From contig VBEW01000016.1 of assembly GCA_005889225.1 (NCBI GenBank), positions 2,229-66,228 of the forward strand: a stretch of DNA of 64,000 bases, in the 5' to 3' direction. The notes beneath the pieces are model-generated. The model saw nothing but the letters and a program-made list of their open reading frames with translations. It was not told where the DNA came from and searched no databases. The position numbers were made by a program, and so were the translations under genes. Of the stretch, positions 682-54,029 are shown in pieces. The first letter of the stretch is position 1. Every line of letters starts with the position of its first letter. Source of the DNA: Chloroflexota bacterium. GTDB taxonomy: Bacteria > Chloroflexota > Dormibacteria > CF-121.

Positions 682-1085
682 TGGCGGTCGAACTCAGCCC
701 GAAGATGCAGGAATTCACCCAGGAGGTCTATCCGGCCATCATCGGGACAAACCGCAAGGACGGCAGCGTCCAGATCAATCCCGTCTGGTTCGAATTCCAG
801 GACGGGTCATTCTGGATCAACGGGGGCACGAACCGAGGGTGGTTCAAGCATTTGCAGCGCGACCCGCGCATCACCCTCCTGCTGATCGACCCGAAGAACA
901 TGTTTCGCTGGGCCCAGGTCCAGGGCCGCATGGTCGACTGGGCCGAAGATCCCGGTGGCGAGCACATCAATCATCTCTCCCATCGCTACACCGGCCGCGA
1001 CTACCAGAATCCGCGCACCGGCCGGATCAAGATCCAGATCGAGCCCGAGCGGGTGATGGGGTCCATCGATGGCTGGGGACGGTAA
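681..1085 (+). CDS. PPOX-class (pyridoxamine 5'-phosphate oxidase-like) probable F420/FMN-dependent protein
   Basis: ~134 aa; NPxWFEF...FWxNG...RDPR motifs typical of PPOX/Rv1155-like split-barrel family; ATG at 681 overlaps upstream stop (TGATG). Confidence 0.6.
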   Translation: MAVELSPKMQEFTQEVYPAIIGTNRKDGSVQINPVWFEFQDGSFWINGGTNRGWFKHLQRDPRITLLLIDPKNMFRWAQVQGRMVDWAEDPGGEHINHLSHRYTGRDYQNPRTGRIKIQIEPERVMGSIDGWGR

Positions 1086-1485
1086 AGCGGTCGCGGCCAT
1101 CAGCCCGGCCGTTCAGGCGCTCGTAGCGCAACCCATCCTGACGGTCGTCGGCACCAAACGCGCCGATGCAACGCTGCAGCTGAACCCGGCCTGGTTTGAG
1201 TTCACCGACGGCTACTTCTGGTTGAACAGCAACCGCTGGCGCACCTGGCCGAAAAACGTGCAGCGGGACCGTGATATCACGTTGAACTTCATCGATGCCA
1301 GCGAGCCGTTTCGGTGGGCCTCGATCCACGGCAGGCTGGCGGACGTGATCCCCGATCCAGACCACGAGTTCATCGATCGGCTGGCCCGGCGGTATTCCGG
1401 ACGGGTGTTTCGCGAGCTCCGCCCGGGCGAAGAGCGGATCACGCTCAAGATCGAACCGGTCAGCGTAACCGGCGAAATGATCTAG
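1069..1485 (+). CDS. PPOX-class F420/FMN-dependent protein, tandem paralog
   Basis: Same conserved blocks as upstream gene (NPAWFEF, GYFWLN, RDRDITL, RWASIHGR); tandem duplication. Confidence 0.6.
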   Translation: MAGDGKAVAAISPAVQALVAQPILTVVGTKRADATLQLNPAWFEFTDGYFWLNSNRWRTWPKNVQRDRDITLNFIDASEPFRWASIHGRLADVIPDPDHEFIDRLARRYSGRVFRELRPGEERITLKIEPVSVTGEMI

Positions 1486-1486
1486 A

Positions 1487-3793
1487 TCAATCTCCTCCCC
1501 CGCTCGCGGGGGAGGGCAGGGTGGGGGCTTTCCGAATCGCTTCCCAGATCCGACACGGCGTCAGCGGCATATCAAGCTCACGGATGCCCAATGGCCGCAG
1601 CGCGTCCATCACCGCGTTGACGACGGCCGGAGTCGATCCCGTCGTCCCACCTTCACCGATGCCCTTGACTCCCATCGGATTGTGCGGGGTGGGGGTTTCG
1701 GTGCGGTCGGTTTCGAACATGGGTAGATCGGCCGCGGTGGGGAGGAGGTAGGTGGTCAGGTTGCCGGTCAGCAATTGGCCGTCCGGGTCATAGACGACGC
1801 CTTCATAGAGCGCCTGGGCAAGACCCTGGGCGATAGCGCCGTGGAGCTGACCATCAACAATCATCGGATTGATCACCGGACCGCAGTCGTCCACCGCGAC
1901 GTACCGGAGGACTCTCACCGAGCCGGTCTCGGGGTCGACCTCGACGTAGGCGAGGTGCGCGCCAAAGGGGAAGACGGTATCCGGTGGATCGAAGCTCGCC
2001 TTCACAGCGAGCTCATCCGTTCGGCCCTCGCCGGCAGCCCAGCCGGCGATGTCCTTCAGCGTCATGAACCGGGTTGGAACGCCGCGGACGTGCACCCGCC
2101 CGTCGGTCACAACGACATCGGCAGTGGCCGCCTCGAACGCCGCCGCTGCCAGCGCTCGGACCTTTCGCTTGAGCCGGACCGCCCCCTCGTGGACCGCCGC
2201 TCCAGAGATGGCGGCGCTCCGGCTGCCGAACGTGCCGACGGCGTAGGCCGGTTGGTCCGTATCGCCATAGAGGACCCGGACCTTGTCGAACGGTAGGCCG
2301 AAGGCATCGGCGGCGAGCTGGGCCCAGGTGGTCTGGTGACCCTGGCCGTGCGGGGTCGACCCGGTGATCACGGTGATGGTCCCGTCGGGTTCGAGCTGGA
2401 CTGTAGCCCGATCCTCGGCAAATCCGGCGGCTTCCTCGACGTAGGTCGAGATCCCGATCCCCCGCAAGCGGCCGCCCTCGCGCGCGGTTTGCTGCGCGCG
2501 CCGTAGCCCCGAGTAGTCCGCGAGATCGATAAGCCGCTTCAGGCTCGCCTGGTAGTTGCCACTGTCGTAAGTACTGCCGGCGGCGTTGGTATAGGGGAAC
2601 TCCGAGGGCTGAACGAAATTGCGGAGCCGGACGTCGACCGGGTCCAGGTCGAGCTCGCCGGCGAGCCGGTCCATCATCCGCTCGATCAGAAAAGCGGCTT
2701 CGGGACGGCCGGCGCCGCGATACGGGCCGGTCGGAGTGGCGTTCGTATAAACCGCGCGCAGCGTGCTCTGCGAGGCAGGAATGCGGTAGCAGCCCGTCTG
2801 CAATTCCGCCACGACCGTGGGAACGAAGGCGCTGTAGGGCTCCAGGTGCGCGCCCATGTCGGCCAGGACTCGGGATCGAACCGCGAGCACCGTACCGTCG
2901 CGTTGCGCGGCCAGTTCGACGTCCTGCACCTGGCCCCGTCCGTGCCAGGTCCCGGCGCAATTTTCGGACCGCTCCTCGATCCACTTGACCGGGCGGCCGA
3001 GCCGCCGGGCGGCAGCGGCCACCGCGATCTCTTCGCCCACGCAGCCACCCTTGCTGCCGAATCCGCCACCGACGTCCTCGACGATAACCCGCACATCGGC
3101 CTCATCGATCTTGAGGCTGGCGGCGATGGCTTCGCGCACGCCGTACGCCGATTGCGAGGAGAGTTCGATGGTCAGCCGCCCGTCATCGATCCAGGCAAGC
3201 GCACCGCGCGGCTCGAGCGCACTCGGGATCAGCCGCTGGTTGACCAGCCGCTCCTTGACGATCACCGCGGCGCGGTCGAAGGCCCGCTTCACCTGTCCGT
3301 GCTTGGACTCTCGACCGAAGGCGAGGTTGGTGCCGAACTCCGGATAGATGAGTGCCGCGTTCTCCGCCAGGGCTCCCTCCATGTCCATGACGACGGCCAG
3401 CGGGTCGAGCTCGAGATCGATCCGCTCCAGCGCATCGACCGCCAGCTCGCGCGTCTCGGCAACGAGCATCGCGACGGCCTCGCCGACGTAGCGGGTGCGA
3501 CCCGCGGCGAGCACGGCCCGCTCCGGCAACGGCACGCCGTGGACCGGCGCCTCGATCTCCAGCGGCGCCAGGTCGTCAAAATCGGCGGCCGACCAGGCGG
3601 CCACGACTCCTGGCGTGTTCCTCGCCGCATCGAGGTTGAGGCCGGCAATCGTCGCGTGGGCCAGGTGGCTTCGCAGGAAGACGGCATGCAGGCAACCGGC
3701 GGGTTGGACGTCATCGACATAGCGTCCCGCGCCGCGGATCAGCCGCGGGTCCTCGACGCGCCGAACGGAGGCACCAAAGACGGGGGGCGTCAT
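1487..3793 (-). CDS. Xanthine dehydrogenase/CO dehydrogenase family molybdopterin-binding large subunit, form II CoxL-like
   Basis: VGGGFGSKG motif; AYRGAGRPE active-site loop (form II signature rather than AYXCSFR); ~770 aa; probable start at MTPPVFGASVRRVEDPRL (Met37 of the track ORF). Confidence 0.8.
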   Translation of the reverse strand: MTPPVFGASVRRVEDPRLIRGAGRYVDDVQPAGCLHAVFLRSHLAHATIAGLNLDAARNTPGVVAAWSAADFDDLAPLEIEAPVHGVPLPERAVLAAGRTRYVGEAVAMLVAETRELAVDALERIDLELDPLAVVMDMEGALAENAALIYPEFGTNLAFGRESKHGQVKRAFDRAAVIVKERLVNQRLIPSALEPRGALAWIDDGRLTIELSSQSAYGVREAIAASLKIDEADVRVIVEDVGGGFGSKGGCVGEEIAVAAAARRLGRPVKWIEERSENCAGTWHGRGQVQDVELAAQRDGTVLAVRSRVLADMGAHLEPYSAFVPTVVAELQTGCYRIPASQSTLRAVYTNATPTGPYRGAGRPEAAFLIERMMDRLAGELDLDPVDVRLRNFVQPSEFPYTNAAGSTYDSGNYQASLKRLIDLADYSGLRRAQQTAREGGRLRGIGISTYVEEAAGFAEDRATVQLEPDGTITVITGSTPHGQGHQTTWAQLAADAFGLPFDKVRVLYGDTDQPAYAVGTFGSRSAAISGAAVHEGAVRLKRKVRALAAAAFEAATADVVVTDGRVHVRGVPTRFMTLKDIAGWAAGEGRTDELAVKASFDPPDTVFPFGAHLAYVEVDPETGSVRVLRYVAVDDCGPVINPMIVDGQLHGAIAQGLAQALYEGVVYDPDGQLLTGNLTTYLLPTAADLPMFETDRTETPTPHNPMGVKGIGEGGTTGSTPAVVNAVMDALRPLGIRELDMPLTPCRIWEAIRKAPTLPSPASGGGD
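1491..1530 (+). repeat. G-rich palindromic repeat copy 1 (CCTCCCCCG-CTCG-CGGGGGAGGG + CAGGGTGGGGG)
   Basis: 10-bp GC stem plus downstream G-tracts, near identical to copies at 46459-46500 and 52307-52350; lies 6 nt after PPOX stop and encodes the last ~13 codons of the convergent CoxL-like gene. Confidence 0.6.
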
Positions 3794-3818
3794 TTCGACG
3801 AGTGTATCCTCGCCGTGA

Positions 3819-5378
3819 ATGGGCAACCCCGACGGTTCGATGCCCAGCCTCCTTCCCGAGAACAGCTGGCGTGGCGACCCGGCGCTCCGAGCAGTGCTCA
3901 CCTCCTGGTTGCGGCCGCAGACGCTCGCCTGGGCGGAGCCGGCGCTGATCGAGATGGGTCGCGCTGCGGCCGACGAGCTGCAGGACTGGGGCGATCTGTG
4001 CGAGCGACAGCCCGCGGTGCTGCAGCAATTCGATGGCTGGGGCGACCGCGTCGATGAGGTGCGCTACCCACCGGCCTGGCGCGAGATAGCGGCGGCGGCC
4101 GCCCGGGCGGGACTGGTGGCCGCTCCATACGAAACCGAGACGCTGGCCCGCGCCGGGGCCGAGGCGCGGCTAGTGCAGGCGGCGCTGTGTTACCTCTTCG
4201 CCCCGTCGACCGCAACCTATCTATGTCCGGTTGCAATGACCGATGGCGCCGCCCGGGTGCTCGTCGAGGACGGAGGCGCTCCAGCGGGGGACGACGCGTT
4301 GCGCCACCTCATCTCCCGCGATCCGGCTTCGGCATGGACTTCGGGACAGTGGATGACCGAGCGCCAGGGCGGGTCGGACGTGGGAATGAATGCCGTCGTT
4401 GCCAAACGCGATGGCGACGAGTGGCGCCTCTTCGGCCAGAAGTTCTTCTGTTCGAACATCGGCTGCGAGATGGCCCTCGCGCTCGCGCGTCCGGAGCATG
4501 CGCCGCCGGGGACCCCGGGGCTCGCGCTCTTCCTGGTGCCGCGTGACCGTCCCGACGGTCGCCGGAACAGCTACCGCATCGATCGATTGAAGGACAAACT
4601 GGGCACCCGTGCGATGGCGACCGGCGAGGTGACGCTCGACGGCGCGCATGCCGAACTGGTGGGCGAGGCGGAGCGCGGCTTTGCCCAGATGACCGCGATG
4701 TTGAACATCACCCGGCTGCACAACGCCATCACGGCCGCCGCCATCATGCGACGCGCCCTGATGCTGGCGTCGGCGTACGCCGCCCGACGGGAGGCCTTCG
4801 GCCGGAAGCTCGATGAGCATCCCTTGCACCAGGAGGTCCTGCGCGCGATGGCGGTCCAGGCCGATGGCGCGCTGCACCTCACGATGCGGATGGCACAGCT
4901 GCTGGGCCGGATCGAGACGAAGGAGGCGACCAGCGGCGAGGCGGCGCTCTTCCGGCTCGGGATCGCGCTGACCAAGCTCTATACGGCGAAGCAGGCCGTG
5001 GCGGTCGTGTCGGAGGCGCTCGAGTGCTTCGGGGGCCAGGGCTACGTGGAAGATACCGGCCTACCGAGGCTGCTCCGCGACGCGCAGGTGCTCCCCATCT
5101 GGGAGGGGACGACCAGTGTCCTGGCTCTCGACAGCCTGCGCGTCCTTCGCCGGGCCGAAACGCTGGACTGCCTCAGCGCGGAGCTGGAGCGGTTGGATGC
5201 GCCGGACGCGCGGCGCGCGCTCGACGAGGCCCATCTGGTGATCCGGGGGGACGCCGAATCGGCGGAGCGAGCGGCACGGCGGCTGGCGTTCCGGCTGGCG
5301 GAGTCCTGGATGACCGGTCTCCTACAGGCGTCGGAAACGCCCGTTACCCTGCCAGGTATCGGGCTGCGGCCGCGGTAA
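3819..5378 (+). CDS. Acyl-CoA dehydrogenase family protein (AidB-like, long form)
   Basis: C-terminal GGQGYVEDTGLPRLLRDAQVLPIWEGTTSV block typical of ACAD/AidB; ~520 aa; exact start uncertain. Confidence 0.75.
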   Translation: MGNPDGSMPSLLPENSWRGDPALRAVLTSWLRPQTLAWAEPALIEMGRAAADELQDWGDLCERQPAVLQQFDGWGDRVDEVRYPPAWREIAAAAARAGLVAAPYETETLARAGAEARLVQAALCYLFAPSTATYLCPVAMTDGAARVLVEDGGAPAGDDALRHLISRDPASAWTSGQWMTERQGGSDVGMNAVVAKRDGDEWRLFGQKFFCSNIGCEMALALARPEHAPPGTPGLALFLVPRDRPDGRRNSYRIDRLKDKLGTRAMATGEVTLDGAHAELVGEAERGFAQMTAMLNITRLHNAITAAAIMRRALMLASAYAARREAFGRKLDEHPLHQEVLRAMAVQADGALHLTMRMAQLLGRIETKEATSGEAALFRLGIALTKLYTAKQAVAVVSEALECFGGQGYVEDTGLPRLLRDAQVLPIWEGTTSVLALDSLRVLRRAETLDCLSAELERLDAPDARRALDEAHLVIRGDAESAERAARRLAFRLAESWMTGLLQASETPVTLPGIGLRPR

Positions 5379-6600
5379 CGACCCGCGCCGCCTGAACGAT
5401 CTCGTCCACGGCGATCCACTCATCGGTCGAGTGCGCCTGCCGGACATCGCCGGGGCCGTAGAGGATGGCCGGCGTTTCTGCCTCGTGCACCAGTAAGCGC
5501 ATGTCCGAGCCGTACGGCGCTCCCGCGAGTTCGGGGGCGATACCGAACTCATCGGCATGCGCCGCGCGGAGCGCCCGAAAGGCCGGAAGCTCCGGATCGA
5601 CTTCGACCGCATCGAACTGACCGCCGTACCACTCGATCTGCGGGGCATGCTCCGCCAGCCACGGGTCCCGCTGGGCGGCGTCGGCGATCGCCGCGGCGAA
5701 CATTCGCCGGACCTCGGATGAGGCCATGCCGACCGGGACTCCGACGCGACCCTCGCATTCGAGCTCGTCCGGCACCGTCGATGACCAACTGCCGGCGCGG
5801 ACCCGGCCAATGCTCAGCGCGTAAGCAATCGGGTACTGGCTGAACAGCGGATGAGCCTGCTGATTGAGGGAGCGCTCGAGCTGGCGAAGCCGTGCCTCGA
5901 TCAGCTGATATTTTTCGATGGCGCTGATGCCCTCATAGCGAACCGACGCGTGCGCGGAGCGCCCGCTGATGCGCAGGCGGAAGGTCAGCGCCCCGGCTTG
6001 GGCAGGGATGATCCGCAGCCGGGTGGGCTCGAGCACGAAGGCAGCGTCCGCTCGGTAGCCGCGCTGCGCCATCGCGAAGCTCCCGATGCCGCCGTCTTCT
6101 TCGCCCACCACGCTCTGCACCACCAGGCGCCCGCGAAGCTGGAGCCCGCTCTTCTTCAGCGCCGCGCCGGCGCTGATGGCGATGGCCAGCCCGGCCTTCA
6201 TGTCACATGCGCCGCGTCCATAGAGGCGGCCGGCATGGATATGGGCCGACCAGGGTGAGGCGTGCCAGGCCTGGCGGTCGCCTGCTGGCACGACGTCGAC
6301 GTGGCCATTGAGAATCAAGGACCGCTCGCCTTTGACGCCGAGCAACCCGGCGACCAGGATCGCCGCCGTGCGCTCGACCTCCATTCCGGGAAAGCGCGGA
6401 TGCTCCTTCAGCAGGGAGACGTCGGCCTCGAAGCGGTCGACCTCCAGGCCAGCTGCTTCGAGGGTGAGCGCAACCAGGTCCTGGGCATCGCGTTCGTCGC
6501 CGGTGACCGAGGGGACGCGGATCAGGTCCTGCGCCAGCCGGACGCACGCACCGGTGTCAAGCGCCTGGAGGGCTTTAGCCTCCGCCCGCTCTCCGATCAC
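5344..6600 (-). CDS. M20 family metallopeptidase (ArgE/DapE/succinyl-DAP desuccinylase-like)
   Basis: LIRVPSVTG, NGHVDVVP, GRGACDMKAG, VGEEDGG motifs; track ORF N-terminal 214 aa are a wrong-frame GC artefact; GTG start at 6600 (VIGERAEAKALQ...) inferred. Confidence 0.75.
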   Translation of the reverse strand: MIGERAEAKALQALDTGACVRLAQDLIRVPSVTGDERDAQDLVALTLEAAGLEVDRFEADVSLLKEHPRFPGMEVERTAAILVAGLLGVKGERSLILNGHVDVVPAGDRQAWHASPWSAHIHAGRLYGRGACDMKAGLAIAISAGAALKKSGLQLRGRLVVQSVVGEEDGGIGSFAMAQRGYRADAAFVLEPTRLRIIPAQAGALTFRLRISGRSAHASVRYEGISAIEKYQLIEARLRQLERSLNQQAHPLFSQYPIAYALSIGRVRAGSWSSTVPDELECEGRVGVPVGMASSEVRRMFAAAIADAAQRDPWLAEHAPQIEWYGGQFDAVEVDPELPAFRALRAAHADEFGIAPELAGAPYGSDMRLLVHEAETPAILYGPGDVRQAHSTDEWIAVDEIVQAARVVTAAAARYLAG

Positions 6601-6629: not shown

Positions 6630-7808
6630 CTACAGGTGTGGGAACTGCTGCTGGCCGAGGTAGACGAGGTAGTCCGGCACGTTCACCAGGTTGGTCAGGC
6701 TGTAGACGAAATTCCAGAAGGTTGCGCTGACCGGTCCGCCCTGCCAGAGCAGATAGAAGAGGAGCAGCAACGGCAGCATGCCGAGGCGACTGGCAAGGAT
6801 TCGCAGATCGATGGAGAGCCAGGGCGCGATGATCCCGAACCCGTCGAAGGGCGGGATCGGGATGAGGTTGAGCACCAGGGCGGTGAACTGCAAGAACACG
6901 AGGAAGGCGAGGGCGCCCCAGAAGTGGACGTCGCCGAAGGGTGGTTCCCCCTGGAAGGCAAGGAATGGCCAGCCGATCAAAATGGCGAAGACCAGATTCC
7001 CCAACGGGCCACCCGCCGAGGCGAAGCTGCGCCATCGATCGGTTCGGATCGCTCGCTCGTTCAGGTAGACGGCGCCGCCGGGCAGCCCGATCCCGCCGAT
7101 GAGAAGAAAGACGATCGGCAGCGCGATGCTCAAGACGGGATGCGTGTACTTCAGCGGATTGAGCGATAGGTAGCCGGCCGCCGCCACCGACCGGTCTCCG
7201 CCCAGGTAGGCGATGAGGGCATGTCCGAACTCGTGGATGCAAAGCGATGTGATCCAGCCGCCAACCACCAGCAGGACGCTCAGCAGCAGGGTCAGCCCCG
7301 GGGCGATGCCAAACCAGAGACCCAGGCCGCCGATGATCGCGGCGCCGACCGGGATCGCGAACACCGGGCTGACGCGGACCGCGCGGGCGAGCGACGGCAG
7401 CGGTCGACGGCGAGCGTCCTTCGGACCCGACCCTGGAGCGGTGAGGTATTGGCGGATGGCGTAGATCGAGATCCCGGCTGCCTCCAGCCGTTCGGCGGTG
7501 CGCGCGGAGTCCTTATAGAGAAGGGCTAAAAGCACGTGGGCGGGATCAACCTGGTAGTGGCCCATCTGCTCGGCCTCGCGGTGCGCATTGTTGAGGAGGT
7601 ATCGCGTCGCCGTTCCGATCGGGGCCGGCGCGGCCGGCAACATGGGATCGAGCTGCGGTGATTGGCTCAGGGCGCCGATGTTGGCGTTGAGCGCCGTCAG
7701 CGCCCGGTGGCCCGGGTTCTTGGGCAACAGCGCGATCGCTTCCAGCAGGTGGATCGGATCGGCCCGCGATACGCCGCGCATCGTGGCAACGCGCTGCCCC
7801 AGCTCCAC
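6630..7808 (-). CDS. Clp N-terminal repeat domain fused to site-2 protease (peptidase M50) membrane domain
   Basis: Two Clp_N repeats (HLLEAIALL; HVLLALLYKD) followed by TM region with HEFGHAL (HExxH) and LNLIPIPPFDG (LDG) motifs of M50/S2P. Confidence 0.7.
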   Translation of the reverse strand: MELGQRVATMRGVSRADPIHLLEAIALLPKNPGHRALTALNANIGALSQSPQLDPMLPAAPAPIGTATRYLLNNAHREAEQMGHYQVDPAHVLLALLYKDSARTAERLEAAGISIYAIRQYLTAPGSGPKDARRRPLPSLARAVRVSPVFAIPVGAAIIGGLGLWFGIAPGLTLLLSVLLVVGGWITSLCIHEFGHALIAYLGGDRSVAAAGYLSLNPLKYTHPVLSIALPIVFLLIGGIGLPGGAVYLNERAIRTDRWRSFASAGGPLGNLVFAILIGWPFLAFQGEPPFGDVHFWGALAFLVFLQFTALVLNLIPIPPFDGFGIIAPWLSIDLRILASRLGMLPLLLLFYLLWQGGPVSATFWNFVYSLTNLVNVPDYLVYLGQQQFPHL

Positions 7809-7909
7809 AACCTCGCGCGCTGACCCGGTCAGCGGGATCTCATGCGCGATTTGCTTGAGCGTCCAGCCCTCGGTGGCGCCTCCACCCGATTCAGCCGCCC
7901 CCGTTGACG

Positions 7910-8136: not shown

Positions 8137-8163
8137 CAAAAAAAGCGGCCGGCGGGCCGCTTT
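8137..8163 (-). terminator. Rho-independent terminator (AGCGGCC-GGCG-GGCCGCT followed by T7 on minus strand)
   Basis: 7-bp GC stem, 4-nt loop, A-tract upstream and T-tract on minus strand immediately 3' of the 8182-8400 minus-strand gene. Confidence 0.6.
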
Positions 8164-17089: not shown

Positions 17090-17108
17090 ACGACTCCCCT
17101 TCATGCAC

Positions 17109-17139
17109 AGCCCGCCAGTACGATGGCGGGCTGTTTTTT
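17109..17139 (+). terminator. Rho-independent terminator (AGCCCGCCA-gtacga-TGGCGGGCT + TGTTTTTTG)
   Basis: 9-bp stem followed by T-tract directly after yceI stop. Confidence 0.65.
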
Positions 17140-41418: not shown

Positions 41419-42477
41419 TCAGGGCGTGACGGTGAGCGCCGTGGCCGAACTGACGATCGTGCCGTCCCCGTTTGTCAGCTGGATCACGTAATCCTGGACC
41501 ACCTGCCCGGCTGGCACTTTGACGGTCAGCGTCGACGAACTGACCAGGGTCGGCGCCAGGCCGGTGAAGGCGCCGCTCGGGCTCGCAACTGGTACAAAGC
41601 GAATGCGAAGCGCCCGGCCCTCGATGAAGCCGGTGCCCTGGATGGTCACGACGGTGGCCTGCCCGGTCGAGACGCGCGAGGGGCTGACCGCCTGTACGGT
41701 CGGTCCGGAGCTGGGCGGCGGGCTGGCGGTGCCGTTCGTCCGAAGCACCAGGTATGCCGGAAACGGCGCCAGTGCTGCGGGTGTTCCGGGTTGACCGTGC
41801 CATTGGGCGATGTCGGGCTGTGCCAGGTTGATGGGAAGCGCGGTTCCGCTGGCGGTCAGTATCCCGAGCACTTTGCCGCCGGGTCCGACCACCGGCCCGC
41901 CGACATTACCCGGGAGGTCTTCCGCCTGCAGCCGCAATTGGGTATCCGTCGTGCTGCTGACGAACGCCGAGGTCGCGGCCGGGAGGTTTTCGATCCGCGG
42001 GTTCGACAGCAGGACGACTGGGTCGTTACGAAGCAAGACGGCCGGATTACCCAGCGGCATCGGTCGTCCCTGCGCGGTTACCCGCACCTGGGCGATCCCC
42101 AGGGCGGGGTCGATGCCCACCAGGTTAACCGTATGCATGCTGCCGCTGTTGTCCACCAGCCGGAGACTCTCGCCGCCGCTGACCAGGCGCGCCGCCGTGA
42201 GGAAATCGCCTTGCGGATCGATCAGAAATGCGGTCCCGAAGGTGTGGCTGTTGACGATCGTCACCACGCCCTCGAGGGCTCGATCGAGCTCGTCAGGTAG
42301 CAGCACCGAGGCCGGCGGCGCAGTTGGCGTCGGGGTCGGCGGCGGCGTTGCGCTGGGACGAAACGCCATCAGGCGCTGGGCCGCCGTGGGGATGAGGACG
42401 GCGGCCCCGACCAGGACCAGGCTGATGACGAGGGCGGCGAGCAGTTGCTCCAGCCGGCTCTTGGGCAGGCGGCTCAC
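41419..42477 (-). CDS. Membrane-anchored trypsin-like (HtrA/S1C-fold) pseudo-protease with C-terminal IPT/TIG domain
   Basis: S1C-like blocks GTAFLIDPQGDFLTAARLV (His replaced by Arg) and PGNVGGPVV (Ser replaced by Val); IPT-like C-terminus; track start 42540 also possible, GTG at 42477 preferred. Confidence 0.55.
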   Translation of the reverse strand: MSRLPKSRLEQLLAALVISLVLVGAAVLIPTAAQRLMAFRPSATPPPTPTPTAPPASVLLPDELDRALEGVVTIVNSHTFGTAFLIDPQGDFLTAARLVSGGESLRLVDNSGSMHTVNLVGIDPALGIAQVRVTAQGRPMPLGNPAVLLRNDPVVLLSNPRIENLPAATSAFVSSTTDTQLRLQAEDLPGNVGGPVVGPGGKVLGILTASGTALPINLAQPDIAQWHGQPGTPAALAPFPAYLVLRTNGTASPPPSSGPTVQAVSPSRVSTGQATVVTIQGTGFIEGRALRIRFVPVASPSGAFTGLAPTLVSSSTLTVKVPAGQVVQDYVIQLTNGDGTIVSSATALTVTP

Positions 42478-42541
42478 AGTGTTGAAACGAGGATGGCCGG
42501 GCTTTCTTGGAGTCGCGCCGGTTTCGTATACATTCATCACG

Positions 42542-43741
<1,200 letters not shown>

Positions 43742-45579: not shown

Positions 45580-46458
45580 TTGGCTGAGGTATCCAACGGT
45601 CGGGCGAACCTGCACCTGCACACGATATTTAGCGATGGGGAGCTGCCGCCGGCGGAGGTGGTCAAAGCGCACGCCGACGCCGGCTTTACGGTGATTGCCC
45701 TGACAGACCATGACACGCTGGCCGGCATCGATGCCATCGGTGGACTCGATGGGCAGGGCGTTCGGCTGATTGCCGGCGTCGAGTTGTCGATCGAGGACGA
45801 GCCACGCCGCGGCCTGGTTGACGCTCACCTCCTCGGCTACGGATTTGCCCTCAACCACCGCCGCCTCCGGAATCGCCTGCATCAGGCCAGCGAGGCCCGG
45901 GAGGCGCAGAAGCGGGAGACCGTGCGCCGGCTGGCGGCAGCCGGGTTTGACGTCGAGTGGGAAGCCGTGCGGTCCCGCGCTCGAGGCAACGTCGGCAAGC
46001 CCCATATCGTGGCGGCCATCGAGGCGGCGCAGCCAGGGGTGAAACGCGAGGAGCTCTACGCCGTCATGGGACCGGGCGGCGCGGCCTCCGTGGCCCGGGC
46101 GAAAGACCTGTCGCTCGAGGAGGCGGTGGATTTGATCACCGGCGCCGGCGGAGTCAGCGTGCTGGCGCACCCCGGTGTGTACACGCATGTCCCCGATCTC
46201 GAGCTGCTGTTCCGGACCTGTGCGGTCGCCGGTGTCCTGGGGCTGGAGGTCACCTATCCCCAGGCTCCCGACGATCCGTATGGACCGAAAAGCGCCGCGC
46301 TCATGGATCGGTTCGCAAAGACTGCTGCATCGTACGGCTGGGTCGCGAGCGGAGGCGATGATTTCCACGGGCCCACGGTGACACCGCTGATCCGGTTGGC
46401 GGCGTGGACAGCGACCCCGGCCAGTTGCGCCGACGAGCTGCTGGCGCGCCGCAGCTGA
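45580..46458 (+). CDS. PHP domain metal-dependent phosphoesterase (TrpH/YciV-like)
   Basis: ANLHLHTIFSDG and TDHDT PHP motifs; TTG start assumed. Confidence 0.7.
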   Translation: MAEVSNGRANLHLHTIFSDGELPPAEVVKAHADAGFTVIALTDHDTLAGIDAIGGLDGQGVRLIAGVELSIEDEPRRGLVDAHLLGYGFALNHRRLRNRLHQASEAREAQKRETVRRLAAAGFDVEWEAVRSRARGNVGKPHIVAAIEAAQPGVKREELYAVMGPGGAASVARAKDLSLEEAVDLITGAGGVSVLAHPGVYTHVPDLELLFRTCAVAGVLGLEVTYPQAPDDPYGPKSAALMDRFAKTAASYGWVASGGDDFHGPTVTPLIRLAAWTATPASCADELLARRS

Positions 46459-46500
46459 ATTTCTCCCTCCCCCCTTGCGGGGGAGGGTCGGGGTGGAGGG
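46459..46500 (+). repeat. G-rich palindromic repeat copy 2 (TCCCTCCCCCC-TTG-CGGGGGAGGG + TCGGGGTGGAGGG)
   Basis: Exactly fills the gap between convergent stop codons (46458 and 46501); near identical to copies 1 and 3. Confidence 0.65.
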
Positions 46501-50775: not shown

Positions 50776-50863
50776 GCCGTTGCCGCCACCGGCTCTTGGG
50801 GAGGCGCAGGCTGGCGGTGCCGCTGCCGTTTACCTAATTTTCGTTGCTGAGGAGCCCGAAACA

Positions 50864-52282
50864 ATGCTGCTTGTGGAAGTCCGCCGCCTGGATATCGCGC
50901 CGTCCGCCGATCAGTTCTGGACGATCGTCTCCCGCGTCAACGGCCCGGAGTTCATGGGCGTTCTATACCGAGCCCGCGAAGCCATTTTCGACAGTGCCGG
51001 AATCGCCTTCACCATCGACCTGCTGAACAAGTTCCTGCAGTTTGACGTGACAAAGAGTTGGTCCGCCGCCGATGAGGGGGAGCTGTTCATGGGGTCGGCG
51101 CCGGTGGTCGGCTGGTTGCGCGTCCGCCGTCCGGGCTCGGCCACCCTGCGTGAGCTCCGATCGGACGACATTCATTTCATGGAGCTCGAGCACGCTGCCA
51201 AGCCGGCGTTCGTGGAAGTCGGTGTCGCCTATCGCGCCGGCACCGAGAAAGTGCGAACGGACTTCCTCAAGCGCATTCGGACCGCCGCCCAGGAGGCGCT
51301 TGGCCAGGAAGTGGGGACGCCGTCGTCCTGGCCGGTGCTCGCCCCCGTGGGCAGCCATAACTTCGATGCCATCCGCAAGTCCCGCCAGGCATCCTACGAA
51401 GCCAGCGCCGAAGAAAACCAGGCGATGGCCGCGTTTACCACCCCGGAGATTCGGGCACTCATCCGCGACCTCGAGCGAGTTGGCTCGCTGACGGTTTCCG
51501 ACCTCCCCAAAGTCCTGGGCGAGGCGCAGGGGACGGCGGTCGCCGGCAGGCTCGGTGAGCTGCGCAACCTTGGCCTGATCCAGTCCGAGTATGTGATCGT
51601 GTGCTCGCGCACCGGAAATGCCGTGCTCCGCACTGACGATCCGAACAAGCTGCAGAAGATGGCACCCGATTGGATGAAGTGCGCCTGTGGCCGGCCGCTG
51701 AATGAAGAGCGGGTTGACCAGGTGATCGTGCCGACCGACCGCGCCACCGCGCTCAACGACAAGGGTCGCTGGATGACGACGCTGGCGACGGCGATCCTCC
51801 CCAAGCTCGGCATTAGCCGTGAGCAGGTCATCATCGACGCCAGTCCCCAGGGCACGGACATCGTGCTCGACCTCAGCGGTGACCTCGTGCTGGTGGTCCT
51901 GAAAGATCACGAGTTCAACCTGGCCGATGCCTACGCCTTCAACGCCAAGGTCTCACGCATCAAGGCCGCAGAAGGCGTGATCGTCAGCAATGAGGGGCTC
52001 TCCGGCGATGCCAAGAAGCTGGTCCAGGATGAGCTCGGTCCGCAACGCGCCCGGATCACGGATCCGTTCCGGATCACCTTCGTGGAGGGCGTCCAGGCGT
52101 TTGAGCACGACCTCGGCCGGGTCGTGGAACGGCGGCGCCGCCAGTATTTCCTGCGGGCGCTCGGCGACCTGGCGACCATTCAGGGCCTCAACATCGGTCA
52201 GCTCGCGCTGGCGAAGGTCGAAGCGGGCGGCCGCGTCGGCAAAGAAGTCGTGGCGCCGGAGGCCGTTCCCGCCGAGGCGTAG
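50864..52282 (+). CDS. Multi-domain protein: unknown N-domain, wHTH-like segment, Cys-cluster zinc ribbon, C-terminal Mrr-like PD-(D/E)xK nuclease domain
   Basis: C-terminal GTDIVLDLSGDLVLVVLKDHEFNLADAYAFNAKVSRIKAAEGVIVSNEGLSGDAKKL aligns with Mrr_cat restriction-endonuclease core; CSRTGNAV...KCACGRP; start at MLLVEV with GAGGAG SD. Confidence 0.65.
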   Translation: MLLVEVRRLDIAPSADQFWTIVSRVNGPEFMGVLYRAREAIFDSAGIAFTIDLLNKFLQFDVTKSWSAADEGELFMGSAPVVGWLRVRRPGSATLRELRSDDIHFMELEHAAKPAFVEVGVAYRAGTEKVRTDFLKRIRTAAQEALGQEVGTPSSWPVLAPVGSHNFDAIRKSRQASYEASAEENQAMAAFTTPEIRALIRDLERVGSLTVSDLPKVLGEAQGTAVAGRLGELRNLGLIQSEYVIVCSRTGNAVLRTDDPNKLQKMAPDWMKCACGRPLNEERVDQVIVPTDRATALNDKGRWMTTLATAILPKLGISREQVIIDASPQGTDIVLDLSGDLVLVVLKDHEFNLADAYAFNAKVSRIKAAEGVIVSNEGLSGDAKKLVQDELGPQRARITDPFRITFVEGVQAFEHDLGRVVERRRRQYFLRALGDLATIQGLNIGQLALAKVEAGGRVGKEVVAPEAVPAEA

Positions 52283-52306: not shown

Positions 52307-52350
52307 ATCTCCCTCCCCCGTCGGCGGGGGAGGGTCGGGGTGGGGGGTTC
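52307..52350 (+). repeat. G-rich palindromic repeat copy 3 (TCCCTCCCCCG-TCGG-CGGGGGAGGG + TCGGGGTGGGGGG)
   Basis: 25 nt after the stop of the 50864-52282 gene; same element as copies 1 and 2; G5-A-G3-TC-G4-T-G6 fits a G-quadruplex pattern. Confidence 0.65.
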
Positions 52351-52405: not shown

Positions 52406-52597
52406 GTGCGAATCGGGAGTCTTGTCGCCGGGGTCATCGCCATCCTGGTGGGCGCGGTCTGGATCCTGCAGGGCTCGGGCGTGCTCCCCGGGAGCTTCAT
52501 GACCGGCCAGACCATGTGGCTGGTCATTGGCATCGTGGTCGCGGGCCTGGGCCTGGGTCTGGCATTCAACGGACTTCGCCGCCCGGCCAAGCCGTAG
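52406..52597 (+). CDS. Possible small two-TM membrane protein (63 aa)
   Basis: Hydrophobic ORF immediately upstream of the molybdoenzyme gene; weak SD; GTG start. Confidence 0.3.
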   Translation: MRIGSLVAGVIAILVGAVWILQGSGVLPGSFMTGQTMWLVIGIVVAGLGLGLAFNGLRRPAKP

Positions 52598-52601
52598 CCG
52601 A

Positions 52602-54029
52602 TTGAGCCGCCATCGCGCGCTGGTCACCGGGCTGAGCGCGGGCACGCTCGCGCTGGGCGTCGACTACCTGGCCCACGCCTTCGTCAACGTGCCGCTCGCC
52701 CCGGAGCAGGCCGGTTATCTCTTGCTCAAGGTGCTCCCGCTGTCCACGTTCGCGGACTTGCTCAAGACGCTCGGGACGCTGGCCAGGCCGCTCCTGCTCA
52801 TGGGCGCGACCGTCGTGATCATCGCGGCTTATGGCGCGGCCGCCGCGGTGCTTGGGCGTCTGTTGCCCCACTGGACCATCGCGGCGATGACCGGGCTGGT
52901 AGCGCTGGTCGCCGGGGTGGTTGCCCTCATCGCGTTTTCGCCCGGCGACTCCGTGCTAGGCATCGTCGTCGAGGTCGTGCTGTTGGCGGGCATGGTCCCG
53001 CTGGTGGCCGCCGTCCTCACGCAGCTCACCTTGCCGGTCGGCGCCAACGAAGATCGACGGGTTTTGCTCCGCAACCTCTTTTACGGGGCGGTGGGCATCG
53101 CCCTGGTCGGCGTCGGCTACGCCAATGTTCGTCGGTTTGTCACGGCGCTCGCCACCACGGAGGGGAACCGCGCGGATCGCGAGGTGACCAGTGTCAGCGA
53201 CTTCTACGTTGTCTCGAAAAATCTCGGCGGCGACCCGGTCGTCGACGCATCCACCTGGCGCTTGAACCTGCCAACCCGATCCCTGACCTACGACGAATTG
53301 CTGACGCTGCCATCGGATGAGCTGGAGCTAACCCTGGAATGCATCAGCAACGAGGTTGGCGGGACGTTGATCAGCAACGGGATCTGGAAGGGGCCGCGGG
53401 TCAGCGACCTCCTGGCGCTGACGACCGTGCCATCCGACGCGGTCTGGATGCTGATCGAGAGCGCCGACGGCTACACGGAAAGCTTTCCGCTGCGTGACCT
53501 GACGCCGGATCACCGGCTTGTCACGCACCTCAACGGCGCTCCACTGACCTCGCAGCACGGCTTCCCAGCGCGCTTCATCTTTCCCGGCCATTACGGAATG
53601 AAGCAACCGAAATGGGTCACGCGCATCCACTTCTCGGCGACCGACCAGCCCGGCTACTGGGAAAACAACGGCTGGGACGAACGGGCAATCGTCAAGACGA
53701 TGTCGCGCATCGATCGACCGTTCGACGGCGCCGCGCTGGCCGCCGGTGCGGTTCCCATGCGCGGCATTGCGTTCGCCGGCGCCCGCCGGATCAGCGGCGT
53801 CGATGTCAGTTGGGATGGGGGGCGCGCCTGGCATTCGGTCCAGCTGCAACCCGAGTTCTCCGCCTATGCCTGGCGATTCTGGGAGCTGACGCCGACCCTG
53901 CCGGCCGGCCAGTACCGGATCCGGGTCCGGGCCCGGGACGGCGAGGGAACCTTACAGCCCTCCAGATCAACGGCGACGCTGCCGAACGGCGCCGACGGCT
54001 ACCACACGATCACGATCACGGTCGCCTAG
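52602..54029 (+). CDS. Sulfite oxidase-family molybdopterin oxidoreductase (YedY/MsrP-like catalytic domain) with N-terminal 5-TM anchor
   Basis: NGAPLTSQHGFPARFIFPGHYGMKQPKWVTRIHF Oxidored_molyb block plus C-terminal Mo-co dimerisation-like domain; ~5 TM helices N-terminal; TTG start inferred. Confidence 0.7.
   Translation: MSRHRALVTGLSAGTLALGVDYLAHAFVNVPLAPEQAGYLLLKVLPLSTFADLLKTLGTLARPLLLMGATVVIIAAYGAAAAVLGRLLPHWTIAAMTGLVALVAGVVALIAFSPGDSVLGIVVEVVLLAGMVPLVAAVLTQLTLPVGANEDRRVLLRNLFYGAVGIALVGVGYANVRRFVTALATTEGNRADREVTSVSDFYVVSKNLGGDPVVDASTWRLNLPTRSLTYDELLTLPSDELELTLECISNEVGGTLISNGIWKGPRVSDLLALTTVPSDAVWMLIESADGYTESFPLRDLTPDHRLVTHLNGAPLTSQHGFPARFIFPGHYGMKQPKWVTRIHFSATDQPGYWENNGWDERAIVKTMSRIDRPFDGAALAAGAVPMRGIAFAGARRISGVDVSWDGGRAWHSVQLQPEFSAYAWRFWELTPTLPAGQYRIRVRARDGEGTLQPSRSTATLPNGADGYHTITITVA

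Follow-up and report, generated by a model that had tools for sequence, protein, structure and literature searches.

Short dispersed repeats of the BoxC kind, reportedly described by Bachellier and colleagues in the 1990s, have to our knowledge been known for about 30 years without an established function. Here we consider three copies of a G-rich palindromic unit in a 64,000-nucleotide (nt) stretch of a Candidatus Dormibacteraeota genome (Chloroflexota bacterium, assembly GCA_005889225.1, contig VBEW01000016.1, positions 2,229 to 66,228 of the forward strand), which we call the window and number from its first letter. These three sequences are probably short dispersed repeats of the BoxC/PIT/'triplex motif' (TM) type, constrained by an intrastrand-triplex fold. 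In Escherichia coli, the reference sequence is TMECO, which Holder et al. (2015; PMC4666352) defined as CCCTCNCCC-N3-6-GGGNGAGGG-N3-GGGNGAGGG, equated with the BoxC repeat of the 1990s and with the PIT element of Hoyne, Edwards, Viari and Maher (2000), and counted 3610 times in 262 proteobacterial genomes. Circular dichroism (CD) and nuclear magnetic resonance (NMR) of the isolated E. coli strand revealed a stable triplex, with 18 imino signals, and not a G-quadruplex (G4). The same study reports that the E. coli element is always intergenic and without strand bias and that small intergenic indels are in excess around it among E. coli strains, and finds no link between it and phages, plasmids or transposons. 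Kaplan et al. (2016; PMC5100583), who searched for G4 motifs, arrived at the same sequences of E. coli and proposed a switch between G4, hairpin and duplex. Their CD spectra were G4-like in a K+-dependent manner and indicated another fold in Mg2+, and they counted 6 convergent copies versus 1 divergent, with pairs on opposite strands.

The three plus-strand copies announced by the original prediction are real. A search for CCTCCCCC-N6-GGGGGAGG with at most two mismatches finds exactly these three sites in the 64-kb window, for a chance expectation of 0.10. None of 100 dinucleotide-preserving shuffles reaches three sites, and an origin by chance or low complexity is rejected on this ground. The tail pattern GGGGGAGGGYNGGGGTGG also matches these three sites only. 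Each unit is about 38-40 nt long and is built from a 9-nt C-rich (pyrimidine, Y) block, a loop of 4-6 nt, a 9-nt G-rich (purine, R) complement and, after another loop, this time of 2-3 nt, a further G-rich block, as follows.

Copy 1, 1491-1530, plus strand: Y block TCCTCCCCC at 1493-1501, loop GCTCGC at 1502-1507, R block GGGGGAGGG at 1508-1516, loop CA at 1517-1518, mirror block GGGTGGGGG at 1519-1527.
Copy 2, 46462-46500, plus strand: Y block CCCTCCCCC at 46465-46473, loop CTTGC at 46474-46478, R block GGGGGAGGG at 46479-46487, loop TCG at 46488-46490, mirror block GGGTGGAGG at 46491-46499.
Copy 3, 52309-52348, plus strand: Y block CCCTCCCCC at 52311-52319, loop GTCGGC at 52320-52325, R block GGGGGAGGG at 52326-52334, loop TCG at 52335-52337, mirror block GGGTGGGGG at 52338-52346.

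The C-rich block thus reads (C/T)CCTCCCCC, and its complement is GGGGGAGGG in all three copies. The third block, GGGTGGGGG in copies 1 and 3 and GGGTGGAGG in copy 2, is the mirror image of the second block with T replacing A, and a direct repeat of the second block is excluded. Read from the sequence, this mirror (triplet) rule holds at 9 of 9, 8 of 9 and 9 of 9 positions in copies 1, 2 and 3, respectively. The original prediction was right about the hairpin and the G-tracts and overlooked the mirror relation of this third block, which defines the architecture. It had also claimed a perfect 10-bp stem throughout; such a stem exists in copy 3 only (CCCTCCCCCG/CGGGGGAGGG), where a G-C pair closes it on a TCGG loop. 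The stems of copies 1 and 2 have 9 bp each: that of copy 1 (CCTCCCCCG/CGGGGGAGG) stops there because its first base is T, its G1502-C1507 pair leaving a loop of 4 nt, and that of copy 2 (CCCTCCCCC/GGGGGAGGG) has a loop of 5 nt. The copy 1 hairpin is predicted at -20.4 kcal/mol as RNA and -11.2 kcal/mol as DNA. For copy 3, the RNA fold with flanks reaches -33.1 kcal/mol (z = -1.95) and the DNA hairpin -14.0 kcal/mol (z = -3.0). Triplexes are not modelled by ViennaRNA. All three copies satisfy the G4 sequence motif (G3+N1-7 x4), as had been stated, and the E. coli relative has been read likewise (PMC5100583). The i-motif attributed to the C-rich arm must be abandoned: this arm has two C-tracts only, so that no intramolecular i-motif can arise from it alone, and four C-tracts are found only in the complement of the whole G part.

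Block by block, these units follow the plan of BoxC/PIT/TMECO. The order is the same, that is, Y9, a loop of 3-6 nt, R9, a loop of about 3 nt and a mirror R9 (class II purine motif); blocks 1 and 2 are identical when N is C/G, and a T faces the A-T pair. The 5' pyrimidine block fits CCCTCNCCC in copies 2 and 3 (CCCTCCCCC) and with one mismatch in copy 1 (TCCTCCCCC). After loops of 4-6 nt, within the published range of 3-6 nt, the purine block fits GGGNGAGGG in all three copies, and the third block obeys the purine-motif mirror code (G*G-C; T or A opposite A-T). Both systems consist of multi-copy intergenic units of about 37-40 nt with variable loops, conserved stems and occasional inverted pairs, and both favour convergent over divergent junctions, lack strand bias and show indel polymorphism among close relatives. 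Here the copies are dispersed, mostly intergenic and variable among relatives, with 3 copies in 64 kb and 10 copies in about 250 kb of related loci from metagenome-assembled genomes (MAGs). The differences are fourfold. One window triplet is C-G*G instead of the T-A*A of E. coli, and block 3 departs from the published regular expression. The host belongs to an uncultured soil phylum (Dormibacteraeota) and not to the Proteobacteria. One window copy is read through as the C-terminal end of a gene product, and copies in phages stand in frame within genes, whereas the E. coli element is 'always intergenic'. Finally, the abundance of the motif in viral contigs contrasts with the lack of any phage or plasmid association in the study of Holder et al. 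With the HPG1/HPG2 motifs of PMC5100583, the units also share four G-tracts, loops conserved as 1-3-1 and C-rich sequence conserved on the 5' side; these motifs were read as G4, not triplex, whereas the mirror-register covariation found here favours the triplex.

The family was collected from viral contigs (IMG/VR, four scans) and metagenomes. Every collection scan gave at least 120 matches, and the family is therefore very common; the original prediction of a dispersed short-repeat family is borne out, and the family extends far beyond the window. The counts that follow are among the matches listed. In the degenerate scan of viral contigs, the variable triplet (C strand, purine strand, third strand) was T,A,A in 93 cases, C,G,G in 103 and G,A,A, the 'mismatch' type of E. 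coli, in 23, and mixed combinations had at most three instances each. The window copies carry G in block 3 where E. coli has A, and this G faces a C-G pair where E. coli has T-A. The difference between the two is therefore a coordinated change on the three strands of one triplet. Opposite the fixed A-T pair, the third-strand base was T in 173 cases, A in 52, C in 3 and G in 4. The seed arm was followed by a mirror block 269 times and by a direct one 3 times. Among homopyrimidine/homopurine hairpins of these loci with asymmetric non-seed arms and a perfect third block, which comprised 20 arm sequences, 86 were mirror-only and 9 direct-only; examples of the mirror register are GGGGGAAGG with GGATGGGGG, AGGAGGGGA with AGGGGAGGT, and GGAGAGGGG with GGGGTGAGG. 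The association of the blocks could also be approached from either end. A third block was present on at least one side in 43 of 87 distinct unselected CCCTCCCCC/GGGGGAGGG hairpins, and a C arm lay within 2-9 nt of 58 of 89 unselected G parts, most of the remaining ones having their C arm through a longer stem or loop. A G4 has no use for the C arm or for a mirror arrangement of the non-G bases, and a plain hairpin needs no third block. Altogether, the reading best supported by these comparative data is that the conserved thing would be the three-strand fold, rather than the hairpin or the G-tracts alone.

According to the triplet rules and to the CD and NMR data from E. coli, blocks 1 and 2 of the single-stranded G-rich DNA strand would form a hairpin, and the third block would then lie antiparallel to the purine arm in its major groove, held by G*G-C and T*A-T reverse-Hoogsteen triplets. 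The resulting fold would be a class II purine-motif intrastrand triplex; a block-3 mutant form of the copy 3 40-mer would read GCGTGCGGG. The element may be a tolerated or selfish structure-prone repeat, the hairpin or triplex of which could promote polymerase stalling and local indels. Transcripts would contain only a plain, very stable stem-loop, which may incidentally serve at the 3' end. This kind of repeat has already been described, and what is new is that one triplet is C-G*G, that the host belongs to another phylum, that viral contigs are rich in the motif, that a copy is read through into coding sequence and that comparisons support the triplet code. Natural variation that follows the purine-motif triplet code over many arms is comparative evidence for a constraint on a three-stranded fold, in a family that now extends to an uncultured soil phylum and of which many copies occur in soil metagenomes and viral contigs.

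Several points weigh against a triplex-constrained repeat. The CD and NMR data concern the E. coli variant only, not that of the window (PMC4666352). In the same study, the triplex was not seen by dimethyl sulfate footprinting in living E. coli cells, and double-stranded DNA of the element was an ordinary duplex, so that folding in cells is hypothetical. The literal E. coli pattern for the third block, GGGNGAGGG, fails in the window copies, which have G and not A at position 6; one of the triplets of copy 2 is mismatched, and the stem of copy 1 ends on a T-G mismatch. The loci used for covariation were chosen for motif presence and related copies are not independent, which the 20 arms mitigate but do not remove. 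The gene-context counts given below were obtained with a crude home-made gene caller, checked only on the Pfam-supported genes of the window. Three versions were required to recover these genes, residual errors limit the context counts, above all the 'inside open reading frame (ORF)' classes, and, as 5' ends are over-extended by the caller, the preference for 3' ends is to some degree overstated.

We then considered where the units lie. All three window copies are placed past plus-strand stop codons, as had been noted, and start 6-28 nt after them. Copy 1 follows a PNPOx-like ORF (1069-1485, plus strand; stop 1483-85, C-rich block from 1493), copy 2 a PHP-domain ORF (45580-46458, plus strand; stop 46456-58, C-rich block from 46465) and copy 3 an ORF at 50780-52282 (plus strand; stop 52280-82, C-rich block from 52311), in a 123-nt spacer that ends at a small membrane ORF (52406-52597, plus strand). 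Copies 1 and 2 also touch minus-strand gene ends, which the earlier work had not seen. The copy 2 unit exactly occupies the 42 nt (46459-46500) between two convergent stops, that of the PHP gene at 46456-58 on the plus strand and that of a thioesterase/alpha-beta-hydrolase gene at 46501-03 on the minus strand. Copy 1 is contained in the end of a further gene.

1487-1528, minus strand: last ~13 codons of a CoxL/xanthine-dehydrogenase-family ORF, with its TGA stop at 1487-1489 and copy 1 within.

This ORF (1487-3901, minus strand) carries Pfam MoCoBD_1/2 and hammerhead domains, and its translated tail, ...KAPTLPSPASGGGD*, is the antisense reading of copy 1. Its similarity to solved homologues ends at query residues 122-129 of 138 (125-129 in the top three hits), and 2-5 residues short of the chain end in the three best-matching chains. 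As the similarity ends early, the last ~10-12 residues are extra, and they and the stop codon are supplied by copy 1. Rickettsia palindromic elements are also short palindromic repeats able to sit in frame in protein genes, although they are about 100-150 bp long, AT-rich and devoid of triplex architecture; their in-frame coding use resembles that of copy 1 and of the phage examples described below. This is a warning for annotation: in such genomes a repeat can encode short Pro/Gly-rich C-terminal tails as well as 'hypothetical' mini-ORFs.

Related genomes allowed us to follow the sites of copies 2 and 3. The hydrolase gene next to copy 2 has an identical counterpart on ENA soil-metagenome scaffolds, and its relatives in GTDB genomes, which share 67-93% amino-acid identity with it, belong to MAGs named 'Chloroflexi bacterium CF_xx' or Candidatus Dormiibacterota. 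At the copy 2 site, the unit is present in six genomes (that of the window and loci L133, L123, L124, L127 and L130) and missing from at least five others, among them L125, L126 and L128, where the convergent stops overlap (CTAG/CTAA). In L129 and L136 the site is unoccupied too, and the stops overlap or abut. At the copy 3 site, the repeat is found in L124, L127 and L133, and L135 is empty; L125, L126, L128 and L132 have instead an ordinary terminator-like hairpin made of an A-tract, a GC stem and a T-tract. Units are thus gained or lost as discrete insertions or deletions of about 40 nt, at times exactly between overlapping convergent stops. Turnover is lineage-specific in L125, which has a private copy (7804-7840) in the divergent spacer upstream of its PHP gene and no motif at either orthologous site, and in L133, where the copy 3 site holds a tandem doublet (5665-5760), the first unit of which has a degenerate third block. 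Together with the indels at the two sites, the private copy of L125 matches the TM-associated intergenic indels reported in E. coli (PMC4666352). The loops and flanks of orthologous copies differ between genomes of 81-93% protein identity, so that these copies are old rather than recent. Exact insertion junctions cannot be defined because the alignments of filled and empty sites are too diverged. In a neighbour-joining tree of the adjacent hydrolase the filled genomes are paraphyletic, and as its internal branches are short and L133 is misplaced, this single-gene tree gives no verdict between one gain followed by loss and repeated gains.

In the family as a whole, the context of each copy relative to its neighbouring genes was as follows, among the loci and copies listed.

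Viral loci, intergenic non-palindromic copies: sense co-directional 95, antisense 98, convergent 17, divergent 4.
120 soil and other metagenome loci, 210 copies: sense 24, antisense 24, convergent 25, divergent 4.

The nearest stop codon is at a median distance of 30-40 nt for either strand of the G-rich side. Units therefore lie mainly just past stops, notably at convergent junctions, in either orientation, and they can be read through as coding sequence. The family prefers gene 3' ends without orientation relative to transcription. A fixed orientation after sense genes, as seen in the window, does not hold for the family, as the even co-directional counts of both sets show, and the uniform orientation of the window copies represents three events (p = 0.25). 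Convergent junctions were favoured over divergent ones in both sets, with counts of 17 vs 4 and 25 vs 4. The motif had also been called typical of high-GC genomes, which is incorrect: the family was defined in E. coli, and copies also occur in AT-rich flanks.

This placement is the strength of the first alternative, in which the GC-rich stem-loop acts at the RNA level, as a U-tract-independent ('I-shaped') or bidirectional terminator or as a REP-like protector of mRNA 3' ends, the G tail being incidental. We consider it unlikely, though it is the alternative that survives best. The start of all window copies 6-28 nt past a stop, the family median of ~30-40 nt from the adjacent stop in either orientation, the favoured convergent junctions and the RNA stems of about -20 kcal/mol all agree with it. 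In addition, the conventional hairpins of L125, L126, L128 and L132 at the copy 3 site place the motif in a 'terminator slot', and this alternation of the unit with ordinary terminator-like hairpins at one orthologous site provides a concrete, testable hypothesis of function. A direct scan for perfect hairpins, used because a short-range inverted-repeat search of the window was uninformative, found six of at least 9 bp at gene ends in the window, three of which are the copies. Consensus terminators are not enriched, with 8 found vs 8.7 expected in a terminator and promoter scan of 44-64 kb, which called none of the three copies. On the other hand, the U-tract is absent, none of the three copies having a T-tract, a statement of the original prediction that holds. 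The conservation of the third block and its mirror-register covariation are left unaccounted for, and copies also occur in a divergent spacer (L125 7804-7840) and in frame in phage genes. Moreover, Hoyne and Maher (2002), as cited in PMC4666352, found the E. coli PIT elements inactive as terminators or promoters and without influence on RNA polymerase. Position and hairpin stability fit an I-shaped terminator, whereas the E. coli relatives are negative according to that citation. A canonical intrinsic terminator was rejected, the stem being followed by G-rich sequence on the plus strand and by A-rich or mixed sequence on the minus strand. Rfam gave nothing at the copies, whether the whole window was searched at the gathering threshold or the surroundings of copy 3 by E-value; its sole match, Pab91 at E=0.45, was dismissed as chance.

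The second alternative is the switch proposed in PMC5100583, in which G5-A-G3-N2-3-G3-4-T-G5 folds as a parallel G4 in DNA or RNA and the C arm competes through the hairpin. All copies carry the motif with short loops, the CD spectra of the E. coli relatives are G4-like in K+ and differ in Mg2+ (PMC5100583), and the G part occasionally stands without an adjacent C arm. Yet we find this switch improbable as the basis of conservation. The 18 imino signals in the NMR of the full E. coli oligonucleotide correspond to a triplex, not a G4 (PMC4666352). The single-base interruptions of the G-tracts are T or A in 225 of 232 matches listed, which G4 loops need not be, and they track the stem A in mirror register across ~20 arm variants, also at terminal positions, which play no part in a G4. 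Furthermore, the C arm usually accompanies the G part, where it would sequester two of the four tracts.

A more ambitious extension of the triplex-constrained repeat would give the fold a role in transcription. TM units in Dormibacteraeota, and perhaps in many soil bacteria and their phages, would be structure-defined insertions that home to gene 3' ends, including overlapping convergent stops, and replace conventional terminators through a DNA-level intrastrand triplex or a triplex-stabilised R-loop, in either orientation. We rate such a role as a long shot; if it were true, the mirror-register covariation would be a signature of triplex DNA function in vivo.

The original prediction called the repeats possibly mobile, or at least they are indel-prone, and this is a fair statement since discrete units are present or absent at orthologous sites of related genomes. 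It also called them REP-like, which applies to their habit only. Like REP/BIME sequences (Stern et al. 1984) and other palindromic repeats, they are short, GC-rich, dispersed, strain-variable palindromes at gene 3' ends, intergenic and more often convergent than divergent. The defining features of REP are absent: REP sequences have no third mirror block, possess a RAYT recognition head and are genome-specific. A transposase-driven miniature element, recently inserted (a RAYT-mobilised REP/REPIN or a miniature inverted-repeat transposable element, MITE), would explain the presence or absence of discrete units, the L133 doublet, the private copy of L125, the density of ~1 copy per 20 kb in the window and related loci and the inverted palindromic pairs that exist among the listed matches of the viral scans, but it is very doubtful, given that there are no terminal inverted repeats beyond the stem, that the flanks are unconserved past the ~3 nt (TCT) just 5' of the unit in the position profile, that alignments of filled and empty sites show no clear target-site duplication, that the GTAG-type REP head is absent, that there is no transposase among the annotated window ORFs (some window ORFs being unchecked), that orthologous copies have diverged in loop and flank and are hence old, and that structural constraint explains near-identical blocks in unrelated taxa no less well than transfer does. 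As candidates, REP/REPIN was set aside because there is no conserved head beyond TCT, no doublet in the window and no Y1 transposase among the annotated ORFs, and MITE because the unit has only ~38-40 nt (a MITE usually exceeds 50 bp), no conserved termini or flanks and no evident duplication.

The viral scans also yielded several minor observations. The motif is common in phage and prophage contigs, with flanks that range from AT-rich to GC-rich, and a number of these contigs may be prophage calls with host DNA in them. In viral contigs L066, L070, L079, L085 and L095, one conserved phage protein has triplex-motif copies in frame: homologues without the motif read ...WGRTPQPF-AAADGATI-YPPAYQQVLKGLP, and those with it read ...WGRTPQPYW-DPLLSSPASGGGKGGGM-VYPPAYQ or ...WGRTPQPY-RNPNPPPLVGEGGEGEW-VFPPAYQ, according to two reading directions. 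A 2001-aa ORF in L208 (6569-12574) contains three motif copies. Across viral loci L003-L393, it is the otherwise C>G strand that carries the G-rich side of the motif in 271 vs 136 instances (143 vs 57 loci), although gene direction shows no such bias. This skew-related bias, which may be tied to the replication or packaging strand, does not recur in metagenome loci (56 vs 66), and the window, the plus strand of which has positive GC skew, shows the opposite.

The other three perfect gene-end hairpins of the window, at 8142-8163, 17107-17134 and 43708-43734, are GC-rich and of 9-11 bp. Those at 8142-8163 and 43708-43734 have AAA...TTT flanks, as in canonical bidirectional terminators, and the latter overlaps the stop of a class I CysRS-type ORF (41810-43741, plus strand). 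The catalytic domain of this ORF begins only at about residue 263 of the longest reading; either the start is over-called or an N-terminal extension is present, and the product could be an MshC-like ligase instead of CysRS. Upstream of copy 3, ORF 50780-52282 (plus strand, 500 aa) keeps its C-terminus in relatives, with 87-98% identity. It had been labelled an Mrr-like nuclease, a label we do not retain as no Pfam family is above threshold, the best being NA-iREase1 (E=0.023). Downstream, ORF 52406-52597 encodes a 63-aa two-helix membrane protein (…LVGAVWILQGSG…) with no Pfam family. It lies just upstream of a sulfite-oxidase-like molybdoenzyme ORF, the longest reading of which (52527-54029) it overlaps, and it has a tblastn match in all 11 of the 11 related Dormibacteraeota loci that cover the region (64-94% identity).

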